Shown here piece by piece: positions 43,020-62,192 of a DNA stretch of 64,000 nt. Each line of letters begins with the position of its first letter. Within the stretch, counting starts at the first letter, position 1. The stretch spans positions 1,376,001-1,440,000 of the forward strand of contig CAVUDW010000002.1 of assembly GCA_963740355.1 (NCBI GenBank). Reading direction: 5' to 3'. Below the pieces are notes generated by a model, which worked only from the letters and a program-made list of their open reading frames with translations, ran no database searches and was not told the origin of the DNA. A program made the translations under genes and the position numbers. The stretch is from an uncultured Gemmatimonadaceae bacterium. Its GTDB lineage: Bacteria > Gemmatimonadota > Gemmatimonadetes > Gemmatimonadales > Gemmatimonadaceae.

Positions 43020-43059
43020 TGGTGTGACTGTGTGACGGTGTGACGTAAGTCATGCGACG

Positions 43060-44547: not shown

Positions 44548-44570
44548 GGTTGTATCCTCTCGTCTCGGTG

Positions 44571-44619: not shown

Positions 44620-44636
44620 ATCCTGTCAAGACGCCG

Positions 44637-45656: not shown

Positions 45657-46772
45657 TCAGGTGTGCTGCCCAATCGCCAGCGCCAGACGTCGCACCCCCT
45701 CCACCAACTCGTCTGCGTCGTAGTGCGCGAAGCTCAGACGCGCCGAGTGCGGGAATGTGCCGCCACGCACGAATCGCGCGCCTGGATGAAACGTCACGCC
45801 GTATCTGGTCGCGATGTTGAGCAATTCCGCGGCCAAGATACTGCCAGGAAACTGCAGCCACACGAAGTAGCCACCGCGAGGTTCGACGAAGTTGGTCTGC
45901 GGCAGCTGCGTGCATAACGCGTCGCTCAAGGCGACGGCCCGAGCGGCGTGCGCGCTGCGCAGGGTGTCGAGCACCGTGTCTGCCAGTCCCATGTCGATGA
46001 GACTCTTCACGACGCCCGCTGCGAACGGATTGAGGCCTCCGCCGCTCTGTACCACGCCGGATTGTGTGAGGGTGTCGAGCAGCGCGGGCGCGCCGTGTAT
46101 CCAGCCCAATCGCAAACCGGGCGCGCAGATCTTGGAGAACGACCCGAGTGAGAGGACGCGGTCGGCGCCCGCATAGGTGGCGAGCGGTGGCGGCGGCGCG
46201 GCGCCGAAATCGAGCAGCTGGTACACCTCGTCCGCCACGACCAGCAGCTCGTGCTCGCGGCTGAGGGCGATGAGCTGCTCGCGTCGCTCGGCCGACATCG
46301 TTACGCCCGATGGATTCTGGAACGACGGAATGGTGTACAGCAGCGCCGCACGATGTTGCGTGAGCGCAGTACGCAGCGCATCGATGCGCAGGCCATCGTG
46401 GTCGATAGGGATGCCGACGACGCGCAGCCCATGATCACGAAAGATGTCGAGCGCGAGGAAGTAGGTCGGCTCTTCGACGAAGATCGTGTCGCCCGGCCGA
46501 GTGAAGCGCGTGCAGACGAGATCGAGCGCCTGCGAGATGCCAGCCGAGACGATGAGATGGCTCGTTTGGACTGGCGCCGCGTAGCGACGCGTCAGGAAGT
46601 CCGCGAGCGAGGTGCGAAAGCCCTCGTCGCCCGGATCGACGCCATATTGCAGCAGTGTGGCATCGCCCTGCGCCAGCGCGTGATCGGCGGCGACGCGCAG
46701 CGCTTCAACCGGAAGCAGCGACAGCGACGGCTGGCCGTTGCCGAAGTCGATGACGGTGTCCGTCGTGATCAC
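45657..46772 (-). CDS. PLP-dependent aminotransferase class I/II
   Basis: EEPTY, FQNPSG, ADEVY, GSFSKICAPGLRLGW, RLSFA. Confidence 0.92.
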   Translation of the reverse strand: MITTDTVIDFGNGQPSLSLLPVEALRVAADHALAQGDATLLQYGVDPGDEGFRTSLADFLTRRYAAPVQTSHLIVSAGISQALDLVCTRFTRPGDTIFVEEPTYFLALDIFRDHGLRVVGIPIDHDGLRIDALRTALTQHRAALLYTIPSFQNPSGVTMSAERREQLIALSREHELLVVADEVYQLLDFGAAPPPPLATYAGADRVLSLGSFSKICAPGLRLGWIHGAPALLDTLTQSGVVQSGGGLNPFAAGVVKSLIDMGLADTVLDTLRSAHAARAVALSDALCTQLPQTNFVEPRGGYFVWLQFPGSILAAELLNIATRYGVTFHPGARFVRGGTFPHSARLSFAHYDADELVEGVRRLALAIGQHT

Positions 46773-46964
46773 AGTCCCATCGCGCGCAGGAGTTCAGGAG
46801 GGCGCCGGTGTGCGCCGAGAGGAAACGTCGCCCGGAGATCCGGCGCGACGGAAGGTATGGCAGGGCGGGGCATGCCGCTCCCACGTCGCCGCCCCCGTAT
46901 CGTATCCTTCCTTCGCGCCCCCACGCTGGGAATTCTGCGCCCCGCACCTATCGTCTGGAGCCAC

Positions 46965-48266
46965 ATGGTCAGCCGCCGCGAACGTCGCCTTCACGCCCCG
47001 TCCCTCTGCAGTGCCACGCTGCTCGCGTTTCTCGGCGTCACGACAGCCAGTGCGCAACGGCCGGCCGCCGACCCGCTCGCCCACGCGAAGGCGCTGCTCG
47101 CCACCACGCCATTGGTCGACGGCCACAATGACCTGCCGTGGGCGATTCGCGAATCGAAGAGCGCACCACGTGACATCGAGGCCTACGACCTGCGCAAGCG
47201 CACCCCGCACCAGACGGACCTCGCCCGCATGAAGGCCGGTCACCTCGGCGGGCAGTTCTGGTCGGTCTACATCCCCGGCGAGATCCGCGACAGCGGCTAT
47301 GCGCGCGTGCAACTCGAGCAGATCGACATCGCGCGCCGCGTGATCGCGAAGTACCCCGAGCTACTGATGCCGGCCAGCACCGCCGCCGACGTACGCCGCG
47401 CTTTCAAGCTCGGCAAGGTGGGATCGATGCTCGGCATGGAAGGCGGGCACGCCATCGAGAACTCGCTCGGCGCGCTTCGCACGTACTACGACATGGGCGT
47501 GCGCTACATGACGCTCACGCACAACGTCACCCTCGACTGGGCCGACGCCGCGCTCGACAGCTCAAAGCACGGTGGCCTCACACCGTTCGGGCGTGAGGTT
47601 GTGCGCGAGATGAATCGCACCGGCATGCTGGTGGACCTGTCGCATGTCTCACCCGGCGTGATGAGCAACGCGCTCGACGTGGCCGAGGCGCCGGTGATCT
47701 TCTCGCACTCGGCCGCGCGCGGGCTGGTCGAACATCCCCGCAACGTGCCGGACTCCATCCTGCGCCGCCTGCCGCGCAATGGGGGAGTGGTGATGGTGCC
47801 GTTCGTGACGAGCTTCACGTCGCCGGCGGTCCGCGCGCATGATGTCGCACGTGACAGCGCCGTGCGTGCGATCCGCGCTGCGACCGGCAGCGACACGACC
47901 GCCGCGCGAACGGCACTGCGCGCGTGGGAATTGTCGCACCCTGCTCCCAAAGCGACGCTCAGCGACGTGGCCAATCACATTGAGTACGTGCGCAAGGTCG
48001 CCGGCGTGAACCACGTCGGCATCGGTTCGGATTTCGATGGCGTCGATGACGACCTGCCCGTCGGGCTCGAGGACCAGTCCACGTATCCCGCACTGTTCGC
48101 GGAGTTGATCCGCCGTGGCTGGAGCGATGCCGACCTGCGCAAGCTGGCCGGCGAGAACGTGCTGCGCGCGCTGTCGCAGGCCGAGGTGGTGGCGAAGCGG
48201 CTGCAACGCGCACGGCCGGCGTCGACGCGCACCATCCGCGACATGGACACCCCGCTGCATCCGTAG
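46965..48266 (+). CDS. membrane dipeptidase (peptidase M19)
   Basis: DGHNDLP, GMEGGH, LTHN, DLSHVS, FSHS, GIGSDFDG; signal peptide. Confidence 0.93.
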   Translation: MVSRRERRLHAPSLCSATLLAFLGVTTASAQRPAADPLAHAKALLATTPLVDGHNDLPWAIRESKSAPRDIEAYDLRKRTPHQTDLARMKAGHLGGQFWSVYIPGEIRDSGYARVQLEQIDIARRVIAKYPELLMPASTAADVRRAFKLGKVGSMLGMEGGHAIENSLGALRTYYDMGVRYMTLTHNVTLDWADAALDSSKHGGLTPFGREVVREMNRTGMLVDLSHVSPGVMSNALDVAEAPVIFSHSAARGLVEHPRNVPDSILRRLPRNGGVVMVPFVTSFTSPAVRAHDVARDSAVRAIRAATGSDTTAARTALRAWELSHPAPKATLSDVANHIEYVRKVAGVNHVGIGSDFDGVDDDLPVGLEDQSTYPALFAELIRRGWSDADLRKLAGENVLRALSQAEVVAKRLQRARPASTRTIRDMDTPLHP

Positions 48267-48299
48267 CAGTCCCACACCTGGCACGCGGGGCACGAGACC

Positions 48300-49166
48300 A
48301 TGACGGTGGTGATCGGCATCTTCATGGCGCTGGCGGCGGTGACACTCACCTACGTCGGCGTCCTCGCCAGATGGCTGCGACGATCGCGCGCGGACGGTGC
48401 GCCGTCGCCGGTGCCGTCAGCGGGCCAGCTGGCGCTCGGCTTCGTCACCAACTTCTTCGACACACTCGGCATCGGCTCGTTCGCCACGACGACGGCCGGG
48501 TTCAAGTTCTGGAAGATGCTGCCGGACGAGCTCATTCCCGGTACGCTGAACGTCGGTCACACGGCGAGCTCGGTGATGCAGGCGTTCATCTTCATCATCG
48601 CCATCCAGATGGACCCGCTGACGCTGATCCTGCTCCTGGCGAGCGCCGCGTGTGGTGCCTGGTTCGGCGCCGGTCTCGTGGCTGGCCTGCCGAGGCGGTC
48701 GGTGCAACTCGGCATGGGCACCGCACTCCTGGTGTCGGCGAGTGTGATGACACTCAGCCAACTCAACCTCCTGCCCGTCGGCGGCGCCGCGCTCGCGCTG
48801 CATGGCTGGAAGCTCGCCGTCGGCGTTGGCGGCAACTTCGTGCTCGGTGCGCTGATGACGCTCGGCATCGGCATGTATGCGCCGTGCATGATGCTCGTGA
48901 GCCTGCTCGGCATGAACCCGTCGGTGGCATTCCCGATCATGATGGGGTCGTGCGCGTTCCTGATGCCGGTGGCCAGCCTGCGGTTCATCGAGCGCAGCGC
49001 GTTCCAGCCGCGCGTGGCGATGGGACTCGCCATCGGCGGCGTGTTCGCGGTGCCGTTGGCGGCATTCGTCGTGAAGTCGCTGCCGCTGACGGTGCTGCGG
49101 TGGGTGGTGATCGTGGTGGTGGTGTATGCGGCGGTGTTGATGTTGCGGTCGGCGAGGACACGATGA
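48300..49166 (+). CDS. TauE/SafE family permease
   Basis: NFFDTLGIGSFA, PGTLNVG, GIGMYAPC, FPIMMGSCAFL. Confidence 0.88.
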   Translation: MTVVIGIFMALAAVTLTYVGVLARWLRRSRADGAPSPVPSAGQLALGFVTNFFDTLGIGSFATTTAGFKFWKMLPDELIPGTLNVGHTASSVMQAFIFIIAIQMDPLTLILLLASAACGAWFGAGLVAGLPRRSVQLGMGTALLVSASVMTLSQLNLLPVGGAALALHGWKLAVGVGGNFVLGALMTLGIGMYAPCMMLVSLLGMNPSVAFPIMMGSCAFLMPVASLRFIERSAFQPRVAMGLAIGGVFAVPLAAFVVKSLPLTVLRWVVIVVVVYAAVLMLRSARTR

Positions 49167-50998
49167 TGGACGCGCGGTGGGTGCGATCCGCTGTGAGGAC
49201 GGCGGCGTTGCTGATGCCGCTGCTGACCGAGACGGCGATCGCGCAGGCGCCCGCATCGCCTGCGCCCCGTCAACGGACCTACGCCAACCCGATCGACATC
49301 GACTACCGCTACAACTTCGAGCAGCTCAATCAGGGCATCTCGTATCGCTCGGGCGCCGACCCGGTCATCGTGGTGCAACGCGGCAAGTACTATCTGTTCG
49401 AGACACTCGGTGGCGGCTACTGGGAGTCGAGTGACCTGGGCACGTGGCGACACATCACGCCGACACGCTGGCCGATCAACGACATCGTAGCGCCCTCGGC
49501 GCTCTCGGTGCGCGACACGATCTACCTGCTGCCCAGCACCACGAGTCCGCTCCCCATCCTGATGCTGCCGCAGGCCGGCACGGGACGCGTCGAGTTCTAT
49601 AACCGCCTGATGCCATGGCTGCCGATGGCGCGCGATCGTGAAGGACTCACCCTCGCTAGGCCGGATTCGGCGCAGCCCGGTCCGTGGGACGCGCAGTTCT
49701 TCCACGATCCCGACACGGAGCGGTGGTTCCTGTACTGGAACTCGTCGAACGTGTATCCCTTGCATGGAATCGAGTTGGACAAGGGCAAGCGCCTCGTCTA
49801 CGAGGGCACACCGAAGTGGCTGTTCGGCCTCGACCCGACACGGCATGGATGGGAACGATTCGGCCGCGACCATCGCGACACCACCATCGCGCCTTTCATC
49901 GAGGGCGCGTGGATGACCAAGCATCGTGGCAAGTACTATCTGCAATACGGTGCACCGGGGACGGAGTACAACGGCTACGCCACCGGCACCTACGTCGGTG
50001 ATGACCCACTCGGCCCGTTCACCTACGCGCCCTACAATCCCGTCGCGTACAAGCCCGGTGGCTTCGTGCAGGGGGCAGGGCATGGCAACACGTTCCAGGA
50101 TGTGCACGGCAACTGGTGGAACACCGGAACGCCGTGGATCGGCGTGAACTGGAACTTCGAGCGCCGCATCGGGCTGCATCCGGCCGGGTTCGACGCCGAC
50201 GGCCAGATGTATGTGGATACTCGGTTCGGTGACTATCCCCACTGGCTCCCCGGCAAGGCCTGGCGCACCAGCGACGAACTGTTCACGGGCTGGATGCTGC
50301 TGTCGTATCGCAAGCCGGTCACCGCGTCCTCGGCGCGCGACAGCTTCCCCGCCGCCACGATCACCGACGAGAATCCGCGCACCTACTGGGTGGCCGCGCA
50401 GAACCGTCCCGGTGCATGGCTCACGATCGACCTCGGATCGGCGTTCGACGTGAAGGCGATCCAGGTGAACTATGCCGACTACAAGTCCGGTCTGTATGGC
50501 ACCGATTCCACCGGCGTCACGCAGTTCCGTCTGCAGCTGTCACGGGACGGCAGGACGTGGCGCACCGCCGCCGATCTCTCGCGTGAACGACGCGATCGCC
50601 CGAATGCCTACGTCGAGCTGCGCGCAGCGGTGCGTGCGCGCTACGTGCGCTACGAGCACGTACACGTCGGCGCCGCCAACCTCGCCATCAGTGACATTCG
50701 CGTGTTCGGCAACGGATCCGGGCCGAGGCCGGTCACGCCGGCGGGATTGCGCGCGCAGCGCGACCGCGACGAGCGCAATGCAGTGATCAGCTGGGACGCC
50801 GTTCCGGGGGCCACCGGCTACAACGTGCGGTGGGGCATCACGCCCGAAAAGCTGTACCAGACGTACCAGCGCTTCTCCGACCAGGGGAGCACGTTCGAAC
50901 TGCGCGCGCTGTCGCTCGGCGTGAACTACTGGGTGGCGATCGAGAGCTTCAACGAGCAAGGAGTCTCGACGCTGAGTGCGCCGGTCCCGATCCGGTAG
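49163..50998 (+). CDS. GH43 glycoside hydrolase with F5/8 (CBM32-like) and FN3 domains
   Basis: YRSGADP, EGAWMTKH, YYLQYGAPGTE, GAGHG, LTIDLG; signal peptide. Confidence 0.87.
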   Translation: MMDARWVRSAVRTAALLMPLLTETAIAQAPASPAPRQRTYANPIDIDYRYNFEQLNQGISYRSGADPVIVVQRGKYYLFETLGGGYWESSDLGTWRHITPTRWPINDIVAPSALSVRDTIYLLPSTTSPLPILMLPQAGTGRVEFYNRLMPWLPMARDREGLTLARPDSAQPGPWDAQFFHDPDTERWFLYWNSSNVYPLHGIELDKGKRLVYEGTPKWLFGLDPTRHGWERFGRDHRDTTIAPFIEGAWMTKHRGKYYLQYGAPGTEYNGYATGTYVGDDPLGPFTYAPYNPVAYKPGGFVQGAGHGNTFQDVHGNWWNTGTPWIGVNWNFERRIGLHPAGFDADGQMYVDTRFGDYPHWLPGKAWRTSDELFTGWMLLSYRKPVTASSARDSFPAATITDENPRTYWVAAQNRPGAWLTIDLGSAFDVKAIQVNYADYKSGLYGTDSTGVTQFRLQLSRDGRTWRTAADLSRERRDRPNAYVELRAAVRARYVRYEHVHVGAANLAISDIRVFGNGSGPRPVTPAGLRAQRDRDERNAVISWDAVPGATGYNVRWGITPEKLYQTYQRFSDQGSTFELRALSLGVNYWVAIESFNEQGVSTLSAPVPIR

Positions 50999-51085
50999 CA
51001 CGACCTGACGGTCGGCGCCGGCGGGCGACGTGTCGAGCGTCACCAATGTCCCCATGGCACGCAATGTCGGACGTACATTCCCGGC

Positions 51086-52315
51086 ATGACCCAGCGATCC
51101 ACGTCCACCGCCGGCCGCGCCGCGCTCGCGTCGGCCTTCGTCGCCTCTTGCCTCGCGCTCGCCGTCATCCCGTCGACAATGTCCGCGCAGAGAACGCCTG
51201 CTGCCCCTAGGGCGCGCACCTACCCGCTCTACATCGGCACCTACACGCAGGGGTGGGCCTGTGCCGAGCGGAATGACTGCACCAGCGCCGGGATCTATCG
51301 CGCGGAGTTCGACGCCGCGACCGGTGCACTCTCGGCGCCGGTCCTGGTCACGAAGGCGGTGAACCCGTCGTACGTCGCCGTGCATCCGAGCGGTCGCTTC
51401 GCCTACGCGGTGAACGAGGTGGGCGACTTCGGTGGCCAGCCCACCGGCGCGGTGTCGGCGTATCGCATCGGGGCAGGGAGCCGGCTGACCGCGATCGGCA
51501 TGGTGTCGTCGTTCGGCGCCGACCCGTGCTACGTCTCGGTCGATGCGGCGGGCCGCACCCTCTTCGTCGCCAATTATTCCGGCGGGAGCATCGCCAGCTA
51601 TCGCATCGCCAAGGACGGCACGCTCAGCGTCGCGTCGCAGATCCCGCTGGCCGGCTCAGGCCCGCACCCGAACCAGAAGGGACCGCACGGGCATTTCATC
51701 GCCGAGTCGCCCGCGAAGGGTCGCATCTTCGTCGCTGACCTCGGCAGCGACCAGGTGCGCGTGTATCGCGTCGACGCCGTGACGGGCACGCTGACGCCGG
51801 ATGCGGTGCCACCGGGCCGCGTCGACGCCGGCAGTGGACCACGCCACATCGCGTTCGATCCCTCCGGGCGCTGGGCGTACGTCAACAACGAGCTCGCGTC
51901 CACGGTGACCGTGTTCGCGCTCGACGCGGCCACCAGCGCGCTCTCTCCAATGCAGACGCTTAGCACGCTGCCCGCCGGCTTCACCGGCGCGAACGATACG
52001 GCCGAGATCCAGGCCAGCGCCGACGGCCGCTTCGTGTACGTCTCGAATCGCGGCCACAACAGCATCGCGGTCTTCCAGGTCGATGCGGCGTCCGGCAGGC
52101 TCACCTTGCTCGACGTCACGCCCTCCGGCGGCGACTGGCCCCGCGACTTCAAGCTCGATCCCACCGGCGGCTTCCTTCTCGTGGAGCACCAGAAGTCCGA
52201 CAACATCGTCGTCTTCCGCATCGATCGCACGACCGGGCGGTTGACGCCGACGGGGAATGAGCTGCGGGTGTCGAAGCCGGTGAGCATTGCGTTCCTGCCG
52301 GGTGCGCGGCGGTGA
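51086..52315 (+). CDS. pgl: 6-phosphogluconolactonase-type beta-propeller lactonase
   Basis: YIGTYT, NPSY, ANYSGG, DLGSD, GPRH, YVSNRGHNSI, WPRDF. Confidence 0.88.
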   Translation: MTQRSTSTAGRAALASAFVASCLALAVIPSTMSAQRTPAAPRARTYPLYIGTYTQGWACAERNDCTSAGIYRAEFDAATGALSAPVLVTKAVNPSYVAVHPSGRFAYAVNEVGDFGGQPTGAVSAYRIGAGSRLTAIGMVSSFGADPCYVSVDAAGRTLFVANYSGGSIASYRIAKDGTLSVASQIPLAGSGPHPNQKGPHGHFIAESPAKGRIFVADLGSDQVRVYRVDAVTGTLTPDAVPPGRVDAGSGPRHIAFDPSGRWAYVNNELASTVTVFALDAATSALSPMQTLSTLPAGFTGANDTAEIQASADGRFVYVSNRGHNSIAVFQVDAASGRLTLLDVTPSGGDWPRDFKLDPTGGFLLVEHQKSDNIVVFRIDRTTGRLTPTGNELRVSKPVSIAFLPGARR

Positions 52316-52370
52316 CGTGTCTCGCGTGCCCGTGCGCGCCCTGAAATCCCCCCTCTTCACCCATCCTCGC

Positions 52371-52766
52371 ATGAAGCCCGCCTCGCTGTTCGTCACACTT
52401 GCTGTCGCCCTGCTGGCGATCGCTCTTCCCACCGAGCCGGCCGCGGCGCAGCAGGCGCCTCCGCGGCAGCTGATGCACGTGGTCTCGTTCCGGTTCAAGC
52501 CGACGGCCACGGCGCCGCAGATCGACTCGGTCGTCGCGGCGTTCAAGGCCCTTCGTACGAAGATTCCGACGATTCGTGAGTTCTCGTGGGGCACGAACGT
52601 CAGCCCCGAGAAGCTGAACAAGGGATTCACGCACGCGTTCGTGCTCAGTTTCGCCAGTGACGTGGATCGAGATGCGTATCTCGTGCATCCGGACCATGTG
52701 AAGTTCGGGACGTTGCTGTGGCCGATTCTCGATGATGTTTTCGTGATCGACTACTGGACGCGGTGA
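52371..52766 (+). CDS. Dabb family stress-responsive protein
   Basis: HVVSFRFK, WGTNVSPE, GFTHAF, YLVHPDH, FVIDY. Confidence 0.9.
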   Translation: MKPASLFVTLAVALLAIALPTEPAAAQQAPPRQLMHVVSFRFKPTATAPQIDSVVAAFKALRTKIPTIREFSWGTNVSPEKLNKGFTHAFVLSFASDVDRDAYLVHPDHVKFGTLLWPILDDVFVIDYWTR

Positions 52767-52823
52767 TGCTGGAGCCGGTGGGCTGCGAACTGTCGAGGGG
52801 CGTCAGTCAGGTTCCGTATCCGC

Positions 52824-53343
52824 CGAGCGCCACGCGTGGTGCCTGGTTCGGCGCCGGTCTCGTGGCGGGCCTGCCGAGGCGGTCGGTGCAACTCGGCATG
52901 GGCACGGCGTTGCTGGTGTCGGCGAGCGTGATGACACTGAGCCAACTCAACCTCCAGCCCGTCGGCGGCGCCGCGCTCGCGCTGCATGGCTGGAAGCTCG
53001 CCGTCGGCGTTGGCGGCAACTTCGTGCTCGGTGCGCTGATGACGCTCGGCATCGGCATGTATGCGCCGTGCATGATGCTCGTGAGCCTGCTCGGCATGAA
53101 CCCGTCGGTGGCGTTCCCGATCATGATGGGGTCGTGCGCGTTCCTGATGCCGGTGGCCAGCCTGCGGTTCATCGAGCGCAGCGCGTTCCAGCCGCGCGTG
53201 GCGATGGGACTCGCCATCGGCGGCGTGTTTGCGGTGCCGTTGGCGGCATTCGTCGTGAAGTCGCTGCCGCTGACGGTGCTGCGGTGGGTGGTGATCGTGG
53301 TGGTGGTGTATGCGGAGGTGTTGATGTTGCGGTCGGCGAGGAC
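52824..53343 (+). pseudogene. 5'-truncated near-identical copy of the TauE gene 3' half
   Basis: Matches 48640-49159 at offset 4184 with few substitutions; lacks the N-terminal half. Confidence 0.88.
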
Positions 53344-53499
53344 GGACGTGGTTCGCGCACGGGCCTTGGGCGTCGCGCCGGAGATCTGATTCTGGCAGAC
53401 TGACGATGTCGCGGACGACACGCTTCGGTAGGGGAAGCGGCTACGCGTGGCGGGATCGGCCCAACTAGCGTCCGCGGCTGCGGGTCTCGTCAGCGCGAG

Positions 53500-53729
53500 G
53501 ATTCGCCGTCACAGTCATCATGTGCTTCCGGAGCCGCGCGCTGTGCACCGTTAATGTGCTCGAAGCGCACCATGTCGGGCGGCACGAAGTCGCGAATCGT
53601 AGTCGGGCGATCTGCTGCGGGACGGTCCTGCTCGCCCGCTTCGACACACGGGATTACATCGTCCAGAGCTGCCCTACGCGCAAAGCTTGTTGCCGGACTA
53701 AAGTGCAAGACATATTCCCGGCTATTCCA
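53500..53729 (+). mobile_element. IS481-family transposase 3' remnant with right end
   Basis: ...GTVLLARFDTRDYIVQS followed by TTGCCGGACTAAAGTG..CCCGGCTATTCCA; homologous to 57547-57708. Confidence 0.65.
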
Positions 53730-53740
53730 ACGCGCGAGGA

Positions 53741-53830
53741 CGCTGCGAACGAGATGCCTCATCCGCACTGTACGCGACTTCCCTTTAGTCACGATGCTTC
53801 TGAGAACAGGTAGCGTGTGGCTTCGCAGCG
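53741..53830 (-). other. degenerate attC-like site
   Basis: Directly after HEPN stop; outer arms CGCTGCGAA/TTCGCAGCG; R'-like GTTCGCA; weak L boxes. Confidence 0.4.
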
Positions 53831-53832
53831 CA

Positions 53833-54480
53833 CTAAGCAGCTTTGTTGCCGTCTGGCGGTGCCAGGAATGAGCGGTTCTCAACAGCCGACGAAATGCTCA
53901 GAGCTAACTCATAGATAGCATTCGTCACGGCGACCTCGTACTTCGCATACTCCTCAATACTGGAGATCACATTCTTCTTCCCGTGCGCAATCTCGTTTCG
54001 CCGTTTTACCAGTGTCTTCAGCTTGGCGGTGTCGTCTTCTAGCGAAGGCATGTGCAGATTGAGAGTGTCGCAGTGCTGCTTGAGCAGACTTGGATACAGG
54101 TTCCCGTTTGTGTCCGCTTTTGTTTCGAATACCGCAGGCTTTGCAAGTTCGGTCGGAAGTACCTCTGTAAAGAATCTCCACAATTCTGGAGACGAGGTGT
54201 CGCCGCGCAATTTTTTGAACTGAGTGTCTAGAGAGAATTGAGCCAGCGACGGGCTGAATTCTGCGCGCGCAACTGAACAGCGCTCTAGTTCGCCTAAGTA
54301 AAGGTCTAGTGCATACTTGCAGAAGCCTTCGTAGTGCGCATACAGCATGACCCAGAGTGCGCGGAGCCCAGCGGCGTAACGCACGGCGTCCGTATTCACG
54401 GTCGCGATCGCAAGGCGCAGCGCTGCAAGTTCCGCCATTCGCCAATCGATGTCTTTCTCAAGCTCTGCCTCGATTGCCAC
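53833..54480 (-). CDS. HEPN-like nuclease (MAE_28990/MAE_18760 type)
   Basis: DIDWRMAEL, MLYAHYEGF, RNEIAHG (Rx4H); 2 nt from DUF262 stop. Confidence 0.8.
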   Translation of the reverse strand: MAIEAELEKDIDWRMAELAALRLAIATVNTDAVRYAAGLRALWVMLYAHYEGFCKYALDLYLGELERCSVARAEFSPSLAQFSLDTQFKKLRGDTSSPELWRFFTEVLPTELAKPAVFETKADTNGNLYPSLLKQHCDTLNLHMPSLEDDTAKLKTLVKRRNEIAHGKKNVISSIEEYAKYEVAVTNAIYELALSISSAVENRSFLAPPDGNKAA

Positions 54481-54482
54481 TG

Positions 54483-55571
54483 TCAGCCCGCGGATGCTGC
54501 GAGTGCGTGCTGAACCAGAGCGATGCGAGCCTCGAGCTTTTGTTTAGAGTTCGCTCCTGGGCCCGTCACGTCTCGGAAAGCGTTTCCCTGAACGGTATCT
54601 CGTATCGCAATTGCGAACTGCTCTTTAGAGATCTCTTCCACTCTCGCGAGTGAGCGGTGGACAGCCATTGCAACGGCTTCGAAGTACGCCGGAGCAAGCC
54701 CGCCGAGCGGGACGTTGTTCCTGTACCGTACGAACGATGAATCGCCCGTTCGCACGGCAAGGGCGTCGAAAACCGCACTGAACTCTCTAATCTCTTCATC
54801 TTGGTCAAACGACGACTTTTCAAGGATTACGCGCTCCATGTAGTCGTCAAGCCAGTCGCGCACGCTACCCCTAAAGCCGTCCTGATAGTTCTTAAGAGCA
54901 AAGAAGCGAAGTGCAAGCTCTTCATCTGCCTTCTGCTCGCGTTCACGCTCCGGGATTGGTGCAATGCAGAGCTTGTAACTCTCGAGAGAAGCACACCTCT
55001 GAAGAAATGTGTAGAACGCCGCTCCACGATCACCAAGAATTCTGGCTGTGACGTTTCGAATTTCCTGCGGAGCGAGGAGTGATCCGCCCGTATTGAGCCG
55101 TTTAAACATCTCAAATCGCAAGAACTGCGAGCTTTGCCGCTTAATCACCACAACGCGGACGGCTGATCGTTTTACACGCAAGCGCAACGTCAGCGAAAGA
55201 TCTGTAAACTTCAGACCGTCGAGCTCGGGAATAAGATCGCAACCCGTGAGTGCAAGTGGATCAGCACTAATGGTAGTCGAGTCGATGAAGCGTAGGATCG
55301 ACGATGTTCGCTGCAATCCGTCAATTAACTCAAAAATACCACCCGCATTCTCGATCACAAAAATCGGAGGGATGGGAAGTTCGAGTAGAATAGATTCTAT
55401 CAGACGCGACTGCTGTTCCTCTGACCACCGGAACAGACGTTGGTACTCTGGGGCAATCAGTAGCTCGTTCGATTTATGAAGGTTGACAATTTCGCCGAAG
55501 CTAATGTCTAGCGCTTCGGTACGAACTTCCCCAATCCGTTCGTCGATAATTTGCTCAAGATCTTTTGTCAT
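54483..55571 (-). CDS. DUF262 (GmrS/ParB-like) domain protein
   Basis: PEYQRLFRWS, LIESILLELPIP, IDGLQR, FKRLNTGG..L..QEIRN. Confidence 0.9.
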   Translation of the reverse strand: MTKDLEQIIDERIGEVRTEALDISFGEIVNLHKSNELLIAPEYQRLFRWSEEQQSRLIESILLELPIPPIFVIENAGGIFELIDGLQRTSSILRFIDSTTISADPLALTGCDLIPELDGLKFTDLSLTLRLRVKRSAVRVVVIKRQSSQFLRFEMFKRLNTGGSLLAPQEIRNVTARILGDRGAAFYTFLQRCASLESYKLCIAPIPEREREQKADEELALRFFALKNYQDGFRGSVRDWLDDYMERVILEKSSFDQDEEIREFSAVFDALAVRTGDSSFVRYRNNVPLGGLAPAYFEAVAMAVHRSLARVEEISKEQFAIAIRDTVQGNAFRDVTGPGANSKQKLEARIALVQHALAASAG

Positions 55572-55615
55572 TGTTCTAAGCTGCCCGGGGACAATTAAGG
55601 CGCAAGGCTCCAGCC

Positions 55616-55712
55616 GTCTGACGAGACAGGATTCTGCTGGGCGGCGACCGCACGAAAAGTCGTCCTGCTTACAATAGCCTGGTCGCCGCGTCAACAGCAA
55701 CCCGGATTCGCT
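55616..55712 (-). other. degenerate attC-like site
   Basis: Minus strand: AGCGAAT-ccgg-GTTGCTGT-tgac-GCGGCGACC...GGTCGCCGC-cca-GCAGAAT-cctgtctc-GTCAGAC, overlapping the abi stop. Confidence 0.6.
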
Positions 55713-56526
55713 AGCCGCGCGCCGTTCTTTCGTCCCAAGTTGTGATTATAAACGTTGAAAGTGTGTGGGCCGCGCCAATAACGAGGCTGGCGTGACGCGG
55801 CGAGAGTCGGTACGACGTGCGTCCGCGTCCGTGAGCTGATCCGGTATGCGTTCGAAATGCACCGTGGCCATGAACTATTGCCGAGAGCCCAGCTAACACT
55901 TGGCGCAAATCATTGTCAGGAATGGACTTCGGATCTAGTCCCAGATCGGCTTGCACGATTTTCCAGAGAGGTTGCACAGACTGGTCTGATGGCAACTCTA
56001 GGCCGCAGTCTTCGATATAGACCTTGCACAGCGACTCAAGAATTGCGCAAGCGGCGGTCACGGCCGCTGCAGGATCCGACTGAACACTCTCAAGCGCGCG
56101 ATCAAACTCGGTGTTCACGCCTCCGAGATCGCGCTCGCGCAGGATCGCCTCGAGTTGTCGAATCGGCGCAACCGAGCCGGCGACAATGACCCTGCCACCC
56201 CGAACGTACTCAAGGCCTTCCCGGTTCAGAAGCTGCCTGACTCGCACTTGCTGCTTGGAGTGCTCGTCGTTGAAGTGGTAGTGCCCCTGAATGTCCGTGT
56301 CCATGAACTGTTCGAGAACAGCACCGAGGACCCGAAGCCCGTCGCATTCAGGATCCGCTGCGGCGCGCTTCAACCACGCCACGGACTTGTCGACACAGTT
56401 TCCCTCAGGCGCGTCTCCTGGTGCGCCACTCTCAGCGAACAAACGATTGAGCGTCGCGTGGTGGTAGTAGTAGCCCCCGAGAACGTCACCGACAACTATC
56501 GCCACCGAGTTCGAGAAGCCAGCCAT
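55711..56526 (-). CDS. abortive infection family protein (Abi_C C-terminal domain)
   Basis: DPAAAVTAACAILESLCK, RTHTGSAHGRG, PRHASL. Confidence 0.82.
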   Translation of the reverse strand: MAGFSNSVAIVVGDVLGGYYYHHATLNRLFAESGAPGDAPEGNCVDKSVAWLKRAAADPECDGLRVLGAVLEQFMDTDIQGHYHFNDEHSKQQVRVRQLLNREGLEYVRGGRVIVAGSVAPIRQLEAILRERDLGGVNTEFDRALESVQSDPAAAVTAACAILESLCKVYIEDCGLELPSDQSVQPLWKIVQADLGLDPKSIPDNDLRQVLAGLSAIVHGHGAFRTHTGSAHGRGRTSYRLSPRHASLVIGAAHTLSTFIITTWDERTARG

Positions 56527-56556
56527 CAGATCAAATGTAGGTTGCTAGCTAGAAAA

Positions 56557-57545
56557 TATGACTGGGCGGGCCCCCCGGTTTCGCGTGGGCTAGCTCCTCA
56601 ATGCGAATCGAGGTACCAGAGCCACCTGCGACGATCGAGCATGTCGCCGTTCTTCGGAGGACCAGCCCATGTCCACGAAATCGGGTGTTCGGTCGCCAAT
56701 TGCTCCCTCAACAATCTTCGTTGGACTCGAAGTGCACAAGGAGTCCGTCACCCTGGCCCTCCTGCCCACCGACGACCTTGCGCCGGTGCGGGTCGACAAG
56801 CTGCCCTACGACCTGAAGAAGCTCGGACGCTACCTGGAGATGCTCGGGCCGGCCGACAGGCTGCGCACGTGTTACGAGGCGTCCGGTGCCGGCTCTGTGC
56901 TGCAACGCGAGCTGGCCATCTGGGGCATCGCGTGCTCGCTAGCCGCGCCGTCGCTGATTCCGACCAAGCCCGGGGTCTAGCGCAAGCGCGACAAGTATGA
57001 CGCGGCACAGCTCGCGCGGCCGTTTCGCGCGGGGTAACTCACGGCCGTGGTTGTGCCGACCGAGACAAAGGACGCGTGCGCGACCTCGTCCGCTGTCGCT
57101 CGGCGTTCCAATGCGACATCCTGACATCTTGGCAATAAGTTCTGAAGTTCCTCACGCGCCGTGGCCCTGGTGTATCGCGAGGGCACGCCGTGGCGGAAGC
57201 CGGGCTACGAGTGGTTGCGTCGTCTCGCGCGTGCCGACTCGTCGCTCGCGGCGGAAGATCGCATCGTTTTCGGCGAATACCTTGCGCTGCTTGAGTACAA
57301 GTTCAGTCGGCGTGATGAATTGGATCGCCAGATCGCCGCGTTAGGTTTTCTCCGGCGTTGGCGCCCAAAATCGCGCGCCTGCGGTGCTTCCGCGGGCTCG
57401 ACACGCACGGCGCGATGGTGCTGGCGACCGAGCTCGCGGCCTGGCAGCGCTTCGGGTCGGCGCGCGAGCTGATGGGTACTTCGGGCTCGTCCCTCGGGAG
57501 CATTCGAGTGGGGACCGCCAGCGCCGCGGCTCGATCACGAAACCA
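56557..57545 (+). mobile_element. decayed IS110-family element (pseudogene recombinase plus non-coding left end)
   Basis: FVGLEVHK, CYEASGAG, APSLIPTKPG*..D..DA, GLVPREHSSG..RRGSITK; stops, frameshifts and 3' truncation. Confidence 0.85.
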
Positions 57546-57546
57546 A

Positions 57547-57708
57547 TCAACGGATCGGTCTGGATGAGACCGACGACAGCCTCTGGGCGATCTACCTCCA
57601 CACGGTCCTGCTTGCCACGTTCGAGGAACGCGACTACATCGTCCAGAGCTGACCCACACGTAATGGATGTTGCCGGAATATCGTGTCAATAATCTCACCG
57701 GCTGTTCA
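57547..57708 (+). mobile_element. IS481-family transposase 3' remnant with right end
   Basis: RIGLDETDDSLWAIYLHTVLLATFEERDYIVQS* then TGTTGCCGG..TGTCAA..CCGGCTGTTCA. Confidence 0.7.
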
Positions 57709-57721
57709 GTAGACCCCTCAA

Positions 57722-58525
57722 TTATCCCCAGGCCTCCAATACATCCGCTCTCCGATACCCGTCGGGAGACTCGATGTGACTTGGATACTTCAAGCAAAGT
57801 CCAAATTCAGAATCTCTGTAGCGGTTTTGGAGTTGCCGCCAATGCGTGATCAGGTAGTAGATTGCAGCGCGAGTTCCAGCACCTTCGATCCCGGCTGCGA
57901 CAAAAACTGGAACGTCGGAATCAGTGTCAATGCTCTTGTCAAATACCTTGAGCAAGATCGCTGTCTCCCAGCCGTCCGGCTCAATGACTGCCTTCCCAGT
58001 ATCCTGGCCACGATTGCGAACTACAGACCAGCGCTCGTTGCGTACTTCGAGCAGGAAGCTCGGTTTGCACGTGTGGAAATAGTGCGCCGCCGCGGTATTG
58101 TGACGCGGACCACCTATGCAGACAGTTGGCCCGGATGAGAGTTCATTCTCCGTCTTCGGGCTGCAGCGAAAATCCAAGACTGGCGGCCGCGCTAGCCAGC
58201 TACTACTCACTGACAACAGCTCAGGTAAAGACTCGAGCATCGTTGTCGAGAAGAGCGATGACAGTAGCGGAACCAGCTTGAACTCCGACTCAGGAAGTCC
58301 TCGCGTATACGGACGGGTGTTTCCGAACCGATCTTTCACACCTCCTACCGGAACCTCGAGAGCCGATAGATACACGAAGAGTCGTTCGGACTTGCCGACG
58401 CCAAAGAAGCGATGCAATCGTCGACGGCGGTTTCTCAACAAGCCTGCAACAAGCACAGCTGATGGAACTAGCAGCGCAATACTTGAGACGAGATTGGCTA
58501 GAACATCGTGAAGGAATGGGCTCAC
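57722..58525 (-). CDS. hypothetical protein: N-terminal TM plus GGPxxN / AGxxGxGTxAA domain
   Basis: RBS GAGGAG before GTG; VCIGGPRHN and VFVAAGIEGAGTRAAIYYL motifs. Confidence 0.7.
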   Translation of the reverse strand: MSPFLHDVLANLVSSIALLVPSAVLVAGLLRNRRRRLHRFFGVGKSERLFVYLSALEVPVGGVKDRFGNTRPYTRGLPESEFKLVPLLSSLFSTTMLESLPELLSVSSSWLARPPVLDFRCSPKTENELSSGPTVCIGGPRHNTAAAHYFHTCKPSFLLEVRNERWSVVRNRGQDTGKAVIEPDGWETAILLKVFDKSIDTDSDVPVFVAAGIEGAGTRAAIYYLITHWRQLQNRYRDSEFGLCLKYPSHIESPDGYRRADVLEAWG

Positions 58526-58553
58526 GTCTCCTCAATGTGAAATGTGGAGCGGT

Positions 58554-58650
58554 GTCGAACGAAAATACGTTCTGCTGCACTGCGGCCGACAGATGCCAAT
58601 CCTGGTCACCGACCCGTGGCCGCAGTGGCTGCAGCAAAGCGGGGTTAGCC
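58554..58650 (-). other. attC-like integron cassette recombination site
   Basis: Minus strand: GGCTAAC-cccgc-TTTGCTGC-agc-CACTGCGGCC...GGCCGCAGTG-ca-GCAGAAC-gtattttc-GTTCGAC; intact AAC/GTT, extra base in L''. Confidence 0.72.
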
Positions 58651-58674
58651 AGCCACACGCCGAAGCTCCTCGGC

Positions 58675-59520
58675 TTAGAATGGTAGATCGTCATCGTCAG
58701 CAGAGCGAACTGCGGCGAACAGCTCGGACAACTCTGTCGCGGACGCCGCGCCGAGCTTGACGACGTTTCGGCTCGGTCGTGCTACCCTCTGAGCGAGGTA
58801 TACCAGCGGACGTTCGAGACCGTCAAGTGCTTCACGTACTTCCACGGTAAGCGCTGCGGGATTCAGGGCGAGTGCCGACAACAACTTCCTCGCGGATACG
58901 AGCAAATCGGACAAGGCAGACGGGGAGACTGGGTCCGAGTCATGGGCCGGTCTTGCGCGTGAGATGACTCGCGAAAGTGCCAGAACTTCTTCGAGAATCT
59001 CCTTTTCCGTTCTGACTGGCGTGACCACGTCCGCTTCAACCCGGTCCATGATGGACTCGACCTGCTCTTTAAGGCGTGGCCACCACATGGCAAAGACGTC
59101 TTGCACGACATCCGGACCAAGACGGTGCTCGCCGAGCTCTGAGTTGATTGCGATCACAACTTTTCGCATCTCCTCCATTGAAAACTCAGCAGACTGAAAC
59201 TGTGTCATTGGACCGACGAGGTCACCAGTGTGAACGCCGAAGAGGATCGGAATAACCCGGGCGCTGCCGATGTTCTTTGACAATGCGCCAGCCTCAAACA
59301 TCAACCATGGCGCTTCAAGGTTGTCGCGCGTCAGGCAAACAATTCCGAGTTTTGACTCATTTAGCTCTCCCGCGATCTCGCTTGACCAGCGAGTGCCCTT
59401 AGTCACGTCATCGGGCGAAAAGTATGGCCGCGATGCCTGAATGACGCTCGGTAGCCATTGGCGTAAGACGTCCGCGATCGCGCGGCTCCGTTCCCCGGAC
59501 CAGCTCAGAAAGACTTTCAT
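58675..59520 (-). CDS. TIR domain protein
   Basis: MKVFLSWSG, KGTRW..EI..EL, GIVCLT, PWLMFEAGAL (catalytic Glu position). Confidence 0.88.
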   Translation of the reverse strand: MKVFLSWSGERSRAIADVLRQWLPSVIQASRPYFSPDDVTKGTRWSSEIAGELNESKLGIVCLTRDNLEAPWLMFEAGALSKNIGSARVIPILFGVHTGDLVGPMTQFQSAEFSMEEMRKVVIAINSELGEHRLGPDVVQDVFAMWWPRLKEQVESIMDRVEADVVTPVRTEKEILEEVLALSRVISRARPAHDSDPVSPSALSDLLVSARKLLSALALNPAALTVEVREALDGLERPLVYLAQRVARPSRNVVKLGAASATELSELFAAVRSADDDDLPF

Positions 59521-59904
59521 GCTCGGAAAGTTGAGGACGTGTTGTCACTAGAACATGATTGCTGGGTAGCCCACAATTAGACAGAAAAGTACCTAATGAC
59601 GGATTCTGTCGCGACGCAACGCTGCAGCGCCAGCGCTATCTGTCCTCGGAACCACAGTCATCGCCCCCTCCCAACGCAGGAGCCGCTTCCGCAACTCGCC
59701 ACTACGCAACGAGTTAGACGCGTTCTGTCGTTGTGCCGCCCCGGCGTCTCGCTTCGAGAAGTCTTTATAGCGGCACTGTGCAGCCTAGCATCCCAGAGCG
59801 AGCCCCCAGCTCCACCTGCTTCGCGAGCGCCTTCCGGGAGAAGTCGGCCTCGCTACCACGGTCAGGCCACAGCGCGCATCACCGCCGCCGTCGCCCCACG
59901 CCAA

Positions 59905-61024
59905 TCACCCCGCCATCACTACCGGCAACGCCATCCGCCGCCGCCCATCTCGAGTCCCGGCCTCGATGAACCCCCCACCCAACACCCGGTCCCCATCATA
60001 CAGCACCATCGACTGCCCTGGACTGATGGCACTAGAGCGCCTCCTCCAACGCCAACTCCATCTCATCCCCATCCAAACGGACGATCTCGGCAGCAACAGG
60101 CACCGCCCGATGCCGATGCTGTACCGACACCCGATCCCCAACCGTGAGGGGCGCCGGCGACATCCACCGCACCCCCCGCGCAATCAACCCGCGCCCCAGC
60201 AACGACTCCCGCGGCCCCAGCACCACGGCGCGCGTTTCGGGCTGAATGGCCACCACGAACATCGGCTCCGCAAACCCACCCGGCACACCCTTCCGCTGCC
60301 CGATCGTAAACCGCGCATACCCATCATGCTCACCAACTGGCACACCGCTCTCGAGCACGAACGGCCCCCGCTGCAACGACGGCGTGTCATCGCCAAGCTC
60401 CCGCCGGATGATCTTCACATGATCACCATCGGGCACGAAGCAGATGTCCTGACTCTCCACCTTCTCCGCAATCACCTCGAGCCCAAGCCGGTGCGCCATC
60501 GCCCGCGTCTCCGCCTTGGTCTGGTGCCCGACAGGCAGCAACAACCGCTGAACGACGGCCCGCTCGACCCCCCACAGGAAGTACGTCTGGTCTTTCCCAT
60601 GATCGAGCCCGCGATACAAATCACCATCGATCGCCCGCGCATAATGCCCAGTCGCGATCCAGTCGCACTCCAACGCCTCGGCCTTGCGCGCCAGGTCGCG
60701 AAACTTCGTAAACGTGTTGCACCGCACACAGGGAATCGGCGTGCGTCCGCGACTGTATTCGTCCACGAAGTCCTGCACGACGTCGCGACCGAACGCACTC
60801 TCGAGATTGAGCACGTAGTGCGGCACCCCAAGCTGCTGGCACACACGACGCGCATCATTCACGCTGTCGAGCGAACAGCAGGGCCGATCAGGCAGGTCTT
60901 CACCGTGACAGAACAGCTTCATGGTGGCGCCGATCACCTCGTAGCCCTGCTCGTGCAACAGCGCGGCGGCGACGGAACTGTCCACGCCACCGCTCATCGC
61001 CACCAACACACGACGCCCTGCCAT
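59905..61024 (-). CDS. mnmA: tRNA-specific 2-thiouridylase, frameshifted near 60034
   Basis: AMSGGVDSS, TPIPCVRCN, ATGHYA, KDQTYFL, TIGQRKG; C-terminal SAISPGQS..LYDGDRVLGGG in another frame. Confidence 0.92.
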
Positions 61025-61028
61025 CTGC

Positions 61029-62192
61029 CTAGACCGCGCCAGCGAGACGACGTGCCTTCTCGACGAGGGAAGGGAAGACCTCGCACACGCGCGCGATGTC
61101 GGCATCGGTGCTCAGCATGCCGACCGACAGACGCACCGCTGCACCAGCCAGCCCACGCGACACGCCCATCGCGCTCAACACATGGCTCGGCGACACACTC
61201 CCACTCTGGCAGGCCGATCCACCGCTGGCAGCAATGCCGGCGAGGTCGAGCGCCATCAACAGGCTTTCGCTGTCGGTCCCTGGCACGCTCACGTTCAGGA
61301 TGTGCGGCGCACGCGTCGCTCCAACACCATGCACCACGGCATCCGGCACACGGGCGAGGATCGCACGCTCCAGCGCATCACGCATCGCGCCCAGTCGCGT
61401 ACACTCGGCTTCCCGCTCCGCGAGCTGGAGTTCGGCCGCCACCGCGAGACCGACGGCGAACGCCACATTCTCGGTGCCGGGGCGGCGTCCGCGATCCTGC
61501 GAGCCACCATGAAACAGCGGCTCGAACGGCGTGCCGCGTCGCAGGAACAACGCGCCAATGCCCTTCGGGGCACCGATCTTGTGCCCGCTCAACGACAGGA
61601 TGTCCACCGGCAGCGTGGTCATGTCGATCGGCAACTTGCCGAACGCCTGCACGGCGTCGGTGTGCATCAATGCACCCACACGACGCGCGTGGGCGCCGAT
61701 CGCGGGAATGTCCTGCACCACGCCGATCTCGTTGTTGATCCACATCACGCTGCACACCGCGACCTGCTCATCGACCAACTCGTCGAGCGCCGCCAGGTCG
61801 ACCACACCATCGCACGTCACTGGGAAGAGGCGCTCCTCACCACCCTCACGCGCGACCTGATGCACGACCTCGAGCACCGCCTTGTGCTCGGTCGGGCTGG
61901 TCACGACCGCGTTGCGGCCCTGCGCCCGACGCATCCGCCAGGTGCCGATGATGGCGAGGTTGTCGCCCTCGGTGCCGCCGGAGGTGAACACGATCTCGTC
62001 CGGCTGCGCCTTGAGACAGGCCGCGATCCGCGACCGCGCCTCGTCCAGCGCCGTGCGCGCGTCCCGACCCCAGCGGTGCACGCTGGACGGGTTGCCGAAC
62101 CGCGCGCCGAAAAAGGGCGTCATGGCTTCCAGCACCTCCGAACGAACGGGGGTGGTGGCGGCGTGGTCGAGGTAGATGGGCGGCGGGGCCAT
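61029..62192 (-). CDS. iscS: cysteine desulfurase
   Basis: YLDHAATTP, GNPSS, FTSGGTE, HTDAVQ, SGHKIG.PKG, SGGSAC. Confidence 0.93.
   Translation of the reverse strand: MAPPPIYLDHAATTPVRSEVLEAMTPFFGARFGNPSSVHRWGRDARTALDEARSRIAACLKAQPDEIVFTSGGTEGDNLAIIGTWRMRRAQGRNAVVTSPTEHKAVLEVVHQVAREGGEERLFPVTCDGVVDLAALDELVDEQVAVCSVMWINNEIGVVQDIPAIGAHARRVGALMHTDAVQAFGKLPIDMTTLPVDILSLSGHKIGAPKGIGALFLRRGTPFEPLFHGGSQDRGRRPGTENVAFAVGLAVAAELQLAEREAECTRLGAMRDALERAILARVPDAVVHGVGATRAPHILNVSVPGTDSESLLMALDLAGIAASGGSACQSGSVSPSHVLSAMGVSRGLAGAAVRLSVGMLSTDADIARVCEVFPSLVEKARRLAGAV

Follow-up and report, generated by a model that had tools for sequence, protein, structure and literature searches.

The window, a stretch of 64,000 nucleotides on contig C2 (C2:1376001-1440000) of the genome of an uncultured Gemmatimonadaceae bacterium, carries at 53.6-59.7 kb four co-oriented minus-strand cassette units that encode a TIR-domain protein, a 267-aa membrane protein, an Abi_C protein and a DUF262 protein together with a HEPN protein. 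The units are very probably a relic cassette array of the kind known as a CALIN (cluster of attC sites lacking integron integrases), that is, four cassettes that were once moved by the integron integrase (IntI) of the lineage and that today are frozen and stranded, off the contig that carries the integron, where a 19.2-kb insertion ends. IntI would once have moved these cassettes by recombination between folded attC sites. The two attC sites kept within the array, attC1 and attC2, are of the same sequence-and-structure family as 16 sites beside the intI gene on another contig, C3. The array is almost certainly frozen, and with at most one usable site left, it is predicted that no cassette leaves it any more.

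The resident integron and its attC family

A search of the whole genome with the TIGR02249 profile gave a single intI above the cut-off (386 bits vs 265) at C3:2343237-2344169, in an open frame with no stops, and no intI match inside the window. The earlier note on this DNA had seen no intI in the window, had called the array integrase-less and had proposed that the gene be sought elsewhere in the genome. The term is correct for the locus, but not for the genome, which has an intact intI on C3. This gene is part of a complete integron, C3:2327938-2344169 (L007), which has 16 attC sites on the same strand and a GC content of 0.634. The attC array sits downstream of the 3' end of intI, with a typical spacing between sites of 575-736 nt. 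The nearest relatives of this IntI (73-63% identity) are from Gemmatimonadaceae, Gemmatimonas and Gemmatimonadales metagenome-assembled genomes, which fits the Gemmatimonadota-like genome assumed earlier. Among the sampled genomes of the family, 70/121 have an intI above the cut-off, the source genome (G000) included; this count takes in the unpublished G067 and G068, which are over the cut-off, and G042, which is under it, and without these three it is 68/118.

A box search for TTGCTG followed by CAGCAGAA returned 16 matches genome-wide, 12 of which are attC-type hairpins on inspection, six beside intI and six scattered. The six intI-adjacent sites have canonical cores, with R'' CCTAAC, a spacer, L'' TTGCTGC, L' GCAGCAGAA, a 9-nt spacer and R' GTTAGGC, and a covariance model, R1, was built from those six C3 sites alone. 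In the consensus fold of R1 a 5-bp R''/R' stem is followed by an unpaired spacer and then by a long L''/L' stem in which two bases stay unpaired. This is the attC layout, and compensatory double changes are found at five of the pairs. The model has an effective sequence number of 1.43 and a short calibration; its E-values are rough and it is the bit-score gap that carries the argument. Genome-wide, R1 finds the 16 sites beside intI (10 of them outside the training set) and 10 sites elsewhere, three of which are in the window; the scores of attC1 and attC2 are far above chance. With filters off, the other matches in the window reach 17.4 bits at most; the top two are the reverse strands of attC1 and attC2 (17.4 and 14.5 bits), and the rest score 13.9 bits or less. 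The seven further sites of the family are at C3:724753, in a three-site cluster at C3:732710-734234, and at C3:839410, C2:1692392 and C2:1978821.

The same family accompanies intI in other genomes. G016, which is of the same genus, has 45 family attC sites directly downstream of its intI (L019-L020, G016:C5:1020488-1050860). From the 80 loci returned, the 16 labelled as Gemmatimonad were run against R1, and in 9/16 of these the attC family lies downstream of intI on the same strand. Near the TIR homologues of other genera there is one 27.5-bit match, downstream of the G172 homologue, and none elsewhere; this is a weak result, R1 being lineage-specific.

The attC sites of the window

The attC sites and related features of the window are as follows.

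58552-58652, minus strand: attC1 (R1 60.3 bits, E 2.8e-14); R'' GGCTAAC 58650-58644, L'' TTGCTGC 58637-58631, L' CAGCAGAA 58577-58570, R' GTTCGAC 58560-58554
55614-55714, minus strand: attC2, with mutated cores (R1 69.4 bits, E 8.3e-17); R'' GCGAAT 55711-55706, L'' TTGCTG 55700-55695, L' CAGCAGAA 55639-55632, R' GTCAGAC 55622-55616
45392-45492, minus strand: solitary attC remnant (R1 41.5 bits, E 4.3e-9)
59593-59717, minus strand: attC0, a probable decayed attC upstream of the TIR cassette; R''-like GTCTAAC, L'-like GCGACAGAA, 6 nt, R'-like ATTAGGT
53741-53830, strand not assigned: hairpin after the HEPN gene, not an attC; 9-bp terminal stem, 72-nt loop, fold z -2.0 and -2.6

The cores of attC sites are RYYYAAC for R'' and GTTRRRY for R', and integrase cleaves the R box within its conserved triplet, GTT (AAC on the bottom strand). 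In attC1 the CTAAC of R'' and the GTT of R' are kept, with one departure per core from these consensus sequences, and its DNA folds at -22.7 and -24.1 kcal/mol (z -2.5 and -3.7). attC2 shares 79-84% identity with three sites of the integron on C3. Its GTT has become GTC, its AAC has become AAT, GCGAAT stands in place of CCTAAC, and both outer R''/R' pairs are non-canonical in the R1 alignment. It is predicted that attC2 is inactive because the cleavage triplet is changed and the R'' core no longer pairs. The earlier note had described three hairpins of attC geometry and a set of boxes common to the two best of them. Two of the hairpins are attC sites by their R1 scores and do share TTGCTG, CAGCAGAA, the spacer and GTT or GTC; the spacer is 9 nt long, or 8 nt if the next base is counted into L'. 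The third, 53741-53830, was tried as a divergent attC and rejected, since it has none of the boxes and no R1 match even at E 10.

The solitary remnant at 45392-45492 retains L'', L' and an intact R' (GTTAGGC, 45400-45394), but has other sequence in place of its R'' side. The region 59593-59717 probably is a decayed attC that once bounded the TIR cassette, and it would now be dead. A loose pattern, CTAAC N60-125 CAGAA N5-10 [AG]TTAG, which was written after the site was seen, has seven matches on both strands of the 5.45-Mb genome, namely six attC sites of the integron and attC0.

Gene content of the cassettes

The array holds five open reading frames (ORFs), arranged in the four cassettes as follows.

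58675-59520, minus strand: cassette 1, TIR-domain protein, 281 aa (Pfam TIR_2 2e-8; PADLOC TIR-TM 1.5e-71; GC 0.57)
57722-58525, minus strand: cassette 2, 267-aa protein of no family; N-terminal membrane helix followed by an alpha/beta domain
55711-56526, minus strand: cassette 3, Abi_C (AbiJ-like HEPN) protein, 271 aa (Pfam Abi_C 3.8e-17; PADLOC AbiJ 6.6e-11)
53833-55571, minus strand: cassette 4, two-gene unit, DUF262/ParB-like and HEPN, with 2 nt between stop and start
54483-55571, minus strand: GmrSD_N/DUF262 protein of cassette 4, 362 aa (Pfam GmrSD_N 2e-24; PADLOC NsnA 2.5e-56, PD-T4-2_A 8.1e-35)
53833-54480, minus strand: HEPN protein of cassette 4, 215 aa (Pfam HEPN_MAE_28990 1.8e-39)

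None of the five frames is broken. The GC content is 0.49-0.60 in 500-nt windows across 53.5-59.7 kb, compared with 0.64-0.71 in the surroundings; the genes of the array have 0.52-0.59, the region 53736-59717 has 0.57 overall, and the genome has 0.65. ORF calls, Pfam, PADLOC and GC content thus agree with the earlier description of five co-oriented, lower-GC genes with these domains. The PADLOC TIR-TM match is limited to residues 1-185 of 281 and to profile positions 1-190 of 293, and by eye no hydrophobic stretch is present in the C-terminal 96 residues of the TIR protein. In the Abi_C protein the domain lies at residues 187-261 and contains RTHTGSAH at residue 225, in keeping with the C-terminal HEPN Rx4-6H of AbiJ; the PADLOC AbiJ match spans residues 147-262 only, and residues 1-186 match no Pfam family at E<=0.01. 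The DUF262 protein keeps DGLQR at residue 84 and the HEPN protein keeps RRNEIAH at residue 160. DGLQR, RRNEIAH and RTHTGSAH are taken here to be the defining motifs of their families.

Judged by their sequence, the cassette genes are intact and retain their catalytic motifs, and they probably still act as one- or two-gene phage defences of the abortive-infection or nuclease type. By domain homology the TIR protein would cleave NAD+ or signal, and the HEPN domains would cleave RNA. The anti-phage label given to the array earlier therefore stands as a domain-level inference for four of the genes; the membrane protein has no such support. TIR homologues are present in 3/150 other genomes of the family, and so are DUF262 homologues in 3/150; neither occurs in the three same-genus genomes of the sample. 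The TIR and DUF262 cassette genes are sporadic.

The 267-aa protein of cassette 2 has no Pfam, PADLOC or NCBIfam match. A word-based search of 5.8 billion proteins returned the protein itself only, and an atlas search led to unnamed clusters. With HMMER, 310 relatives were recovered from 1.84 billion representatives at E<=1e-3, and 102 at E<=1e-10; their length is mostly 256-297 aa. The AlphaFold2 model, made with a 55-sequence alignment, has a pLDDT of 93.5 and consists of a long N-terminal helix (residues 3-41) followed by an alpha/beta domain. Foldseek found no match to this model in the PDB at E<=0.001. The top match found with VIA-align is a BcsB domain (Z 10.4, 160 residues aligned, root-mean-square deviation 3.3), and next come, at Z 9-10, N-terminal domains of GH67/GH115 enzymes and, at Z 9.5, an archaeal S-layer anchoring domain; at a Z of about 10 these matches would indicate a domain-level resemblance only. 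It was also considered that the TIR protein and the membrane protein are one two-gene system split by attC1, and this was rejected, as no homologue fusion supports it. No TIR or other Pfam domain above threshold is found in any of eight longer homologues of the 267-aa protein, nor in two of near-query length. An anti-phage role is suggested for the 267-aa protein by its neighbours alone.

Insertion sequences and the probable loss of attC sites

Two of the four cassettes, 2 and 4, have no attC. The features that bear on this are the following.

56549-57542, plus strand: truncated and degraded IS110/IS1111-type element, left end at 56549
57542-57709, plus strand: IS481-family fragment A, terminal repeat (TGAACAGCCGG...) together with the transposase gene's 3' end, outer end at 57708
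53605-53735, plus strand: IS481-family fragment B, a more decayed second copy, 72-74% identical to 57585-57707
56527-56548, minus strand: start of cassette 3 with the R' core remnant TAGCTAG, abutting the left end of the insertion sequence, 15 nt before the Abi_C ATG

The segment 56549-57709 consists of two truncated insertion sequences (ISs) fused at 57542. A single IS110 element at 56549-57709 was considered and rejected; the copies in relatives always break at 57542. IS481 fragment A begins 13 nt past the stop of the cassette 2 gene and is 80-84% identical to four copies in relatives. An intact IS481 homologue in L027 (2994-4070, 358 aa) matches NF033577, IS481, at 1.1e-61. An IS481 end had been noticed before at the 3' flank of the membrane-protein unit, and the match of 57542-57709 to the 3' end of the relatives' transposase gene agrees with it. 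A sequence that lies beside both IS481 fragments, GAACAGCCGG, was tried as a remnant of an attC R'' and spacer; this was rejected, and the junctions in four relatives identify it as the IS481 terminal repeat.

The IS1111-type copy in the window is without the last ~90 transposase codons, the 3' non-coding region and the right end. It matches NF033542 with an N-terminal piece (1.5e-4) and a C-terminal piece (2e-5) as well as Pfam Transposase_20, and it is 77-84% identical to seven copies with a full-length start in relatives. Its transposase gene has a premature stop after codon 103, and that of L021, from a relative, continues to 213. The transposase of L021 is in two ORFs that score 74.4 and 121.5 bits over positions 1-155 and 186-341 of the NF033542 profile; as the gene is split, neither reaches the cut-off of 140 set for the whole protein. 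In L021, L022, L024 and L025 (from G010, G005 and G004) a conserved non-coding region of ~350 nt runs from the transposase stop to the end that abuts GTT. It is the expected place for a putative seek/bridge RNA that reads the attC target.

In the relatives the IS1111-type copies sit in cassette arrays, between the GTT and the AGGC of an attC. At the right ends (5/5 aligned) the invariant IS end GATATGACTGGGCTGCTGTCAAGGG comes immediately after the L', the spacer and the GTT of an attC. At the left ends (7/7 relatives) the remaining R' core, as TAGGC, TAGAC, TAGGT, TAGCG or TATAC, adjoins the IS end, ...CATATTTTC. The left end in the window is followed by TAGCTAG, as at the R' junctions of the relatives, and the Abi_C cassette begins exactly where a cassette should, at the R' remnant. 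The preceding cassette would then have had an attC at its end, with this IS at the recombination point of that site. For the IS481-type element, the other end lies 8-10 nt upstream of an attC R'' in L027 (about 4200-4250, G010) and in L028 (about 3190-3240, G012), which hints that this element too prefers the gene-attC junction of cassettes. A 14-nt repeat, TTCRCATTGAGGAG (minus strand), occurs at 58528-58541, in the ribosome-binding region of the 267-aa gene, and at 56594-56607. The latter copy is inside the left end of the IS1111-type element and is similar in the relatives' copies, and the repeat is probably a coincidence.

These junctions suggest a simplest history for cassette 2. The IS481 element would have inserted past the 267-aa gene and ahead of its attC, the IS1111-type element would have inserted at the R' end of that attC, and a deletion between the interiors of the two elements would then have removed the site. 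Fragment B suggests a similar event, an IS481-associated loss of the attC of cassette 4. In the earlier note the array was described as decaying and partly immobilised by core mutations. The decay and the mutated cores of attC2 are borne out, but most of the decay would come from the insertion of ISs and from deletion, to which the core mutations add.

Genomic setting of the array

The array lies at one end of a larger insertion.

40689-59916, strand not assigned: strain-specific insertion of 19.2 kb, flanked by a CBS-domain gene and by the 3' end of mnmA, with the array as its right-hand end

Eight relatives were compared at this locus, and in G009 the flanks are unresolved. In blastn comparisons, position 40688 of the window lies 5-70 nt from 59917-59962 in five genomes of the same genus (G003, G004, G005, G016 and G019). 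G006 and G014 have different inserts at the locus, of 2.9 kb and 4.0 kb, with unrelated genes that include a cytochrome c. The 19.2-kb block is therefore absent from the locus in all seven relatives in which both flanks could be placed, five having no insert and two an unrelated one. No attC site of the family was found in nine loci from the eight relatives. The insertion spot varies between relatives, but it is no conserved hotspot for defence genes.

No integrase, tRNA or direct repeat is present at the ends of the insertion. Its middle, 45.5-53.6 kb, has a normal GC content of 0.67 and carries genes for an aminotransferase, an M19 dipeptidase, a GH43 protein, a lactonase, a Dabb protein and a TauE-like protein, which relatives carry at other loci. 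The attC remnant at 45392-45492 lies where this normal-GC core meets a segment of 4.7 kb that carries pilin-like (N_methyl), DUF4440 and MarR genes and may represent further decayed cassettes. At the other end of the insertion, mnmA (tRNA_Me_trans, 59905-61105, minus strand) appears to be split. The ORF 60032-61105 stops, and the conserved C-terminal part (...LYDGDRVLGGGFIE) is in another frame, in the ORF 59905-60183; this is a frameshift or an assembly error.

Weighing the origin and the present state of the array

A decaying defence-cassette array was also the overall reading of the earlier note, which had named three observations that would speak against it: no covariance-model hits, no related attC family or intI in this or related genomes, and a fixed gene order across relatives. 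R1 matches two of the hairpins, the attC family and intI are both present in the genome and in its relatives, and the block is missing in five relatives and replaced in two, so that the reading is supported on each count. Not mentioned in the note are the attC remnant at 45392-45492, attC0, the truncated IS110/IS1111-type element, IS481 fragment B, and the intI with its 16 sites on C3.

Several points nevertheless weigh against a relic array. R1 is built on six sequences and is specific to the lineage, unlike the generic model of IntegronFinder, and its E-values, though not its bit scores, are rough. The loss of the cassette 2 attC through a deletion between ISs is deduced from the truncation points. 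No trace of an attC is left after cassette 4, whose status as a cassette follows from its start at attC2 and from the IS481 fragment. attC0 has no R1 match and no significant fold (z 0.1 and 0.9). The GC content of the array is 0.57 and that of the resident C3 array is 0.634, and the cassettes are therefore not a simple copy of resident ones. A promoter and terminator scan found no promoter-like site in the array, and PADLOC, homologue, fold and longer-homologue searches linked the 267-aa protein to no defence family.

The cassettes could also have arrived singly, if IntI put each of them into a non-canonical site of the genome (the attG route), and not as a fragment of a larger array brought by rearrangement or horizontal transfer. 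Off-target insertion by an IntI that is elsewhere in the genome is one of three routes to CALINs proposed in the available text of PMC8618304, and IntI-catalysed insertion outside att sites is reported in that of 10.1101/2022.09.11.507474. This origin is rather unlikely here, as attC0, with its R''-like and R'-like boxes upstream of the first cassette, suggests that the array once continued upstream. Moreover, the array is inside a 19.2-kb mosaic insertion with IS debris and with a second, half-replaced attC 8 kb away, and its GC content is below that of the resident array.

It is very unlikely that the array is still a working satellite, on which the IntI from C3 acts in trans at attC1 and attC2, or at attC1 and sites elsewhere. 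CALINs are thought to be mobilisable in trans, the genome has an apparently intact intI, and attC1 keeps CTAAC, GTT, a well-paired stem and a 60-bit score. However, the exit of a cassette needs two working sites. attC2 has GTC for GTT, GCGAAT for CCTAAC and both outer pairs broken, attC0 has ATT and no fold, and the other two attC sites have been deleted.

That the locus is an ordinary defence island, with hairpins that are terminators or REP-like repeats and have nothing to do with integrons, is so improbable that it can be set aside: defence genes do commonly cluster in low-GC islands and the third hairpin, 53741-53830, is indeed no attC, but the other two score 60-69 bits with a model trained only on intI-adjacent sites and share the R'', L'', L' and R' boxes with those sites, 12 of the 16 exact-box matches in the genome are attC-type hairpins, and at the attC sites no Rfam family is found at E<=0.1 and no T-run terminator.

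Implications

A relic array of this kind is a dissected example of how integron cassettes turn into fixed chromosomal genes. What it adds is an attC family that is tied to a resident integron, and a loss of two attC sites that is traced to two families of IS, with the attC core as the precise homing site of one of them. It also extends the picture of integron cassettes as stores of phage defence to a Gemmatimonas-like lineage of soil or freshwater. Knowledge of integrons and of defence systems is otherwise unchanged.

A wider proposal is that the IS1111-type element, at the R' core, and the IS481-type element, just upstream of R'', are regular agents of cassette stranding in Gemmatimonad genomes, and that the 267-aa family is an unrecognised anti-phage gene that acts at the envelope. 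This proposal is speculative and unlikely to be right. If it were true, both attC-homing types of IS would turn the mobile cargo of integrons into fixed chromosomal defence genes.

Comparison with known systems

The resident integron resembles integrons in which intI is co-oriented with the cassettes, the 'inverted integrase' group, for example in Treponema. In the source genome, in G016 and in 9/16 Gemmatimonad-labelled loci, intI and the attC sites share a strand, and the sites come after the 3' end of the gene. This likeness belongs to the integron on C3 and not to the array in the window.

The IS1111-type element is comparable to the IS1111-attC group, which was reportedly described by Tetu and Holmes in 2008 and by Post and Hall in 2009. 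It shares with that group an IS110/IS1111-type DEDD transposase, a fixed point and orientation of insertion at one attC end and, in relatives, a downstream non-coding region of ~350 nt. It differs in that the copy in the window is a truncated pseudogene and that the family is from Gemmatimonad genomes. The group also has subterminal inverted repeats and a guide (seek/bridge) RNA in the downstream non-coding region, a region that the window copy has lost. The available text of PMC11187229 names ISKpn4 and ISPst6 as members of the IS1111 family that target one attC end. Integrons of Gemmatimonadota, together with the three proposed routes to CALINs, are on record in PMC8618304, as far as its available text goes. 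The literature found on Gemmatimonad integrons and on IS1111-attC elements did not describe, for Gemmatimonadota, either this attC family or these IS elements.

The two-gene unit of cassette 4 is similar to the Menshen (NsnABC) and PD-T4-2 DUF262 systems, which appear in the available text of PMC12065111, in that its DUF262 protein matches PADLOC NsnA at 2.5e-56 and PD-T4-2_A at 8.1e-35. The partner, however, is a HEPN_MAE_28990 protein and not an NsnB ATPase with a third gene, and the next feature is an IS481 fragment. The HEPN partner has no match to a PADLOC PD-T4-2 partner at E<=0.01 and no ATPase match. The pair is not Menshen because it is without an NsnB-type ATPase.

Cassettes of integrons and CALINs are described as rich in defence systems, among them the Abi_C system 'Taranis', in the available text of the preprint by Darracq et al. 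(10.1101/2024.07.02.601686), and defence cassettes in integrons are also the subject of the preprint by Kieffer et al. (10.1101/2024.07.02.601719), as far as its available text goes. Like the defence cassettes of chromosomal and mobile integrons, the cassettes in the window are small one- or two-gene units with defence domains, bounded by attC sites. The published cassettes have been tested with phages in Vibrio and E. coli, whereas those described here are known from their genes, in a Gemmatimonas-like host and in an array that is detached and immobilised.

The working definition of a CALIN, as given in the available text of PMC8618304 and of 10.1101/2024.07.02.601686, is a set of two or more attC sites on one strand, within about 4 kb of one another and with no adjacent intI. 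In the window two minus-strand attC sites lie within 4 kb by R1 (69.4 and 60.3 bits), and no intI adjoins them. The intI, attI and cassettes that at one locus make up a complete integron do not occur together in the window. The call of a CALIN is made here with the lineage-specific R1 model and not with that of IntegronFinder. Compared with other CALINs, the array is at the decayed end of the range: IS activity has taken away half of the attC sites that would be expected, and of the remaining two, one has mutated cores. In common with them, it has two co-oriented attC sites, 2.8 kb apart, cassette-sized units between them and an intI elsewhere in the genome. The array exemplifies, with good documentation, a kind of element that is already known; it is not a new kind.

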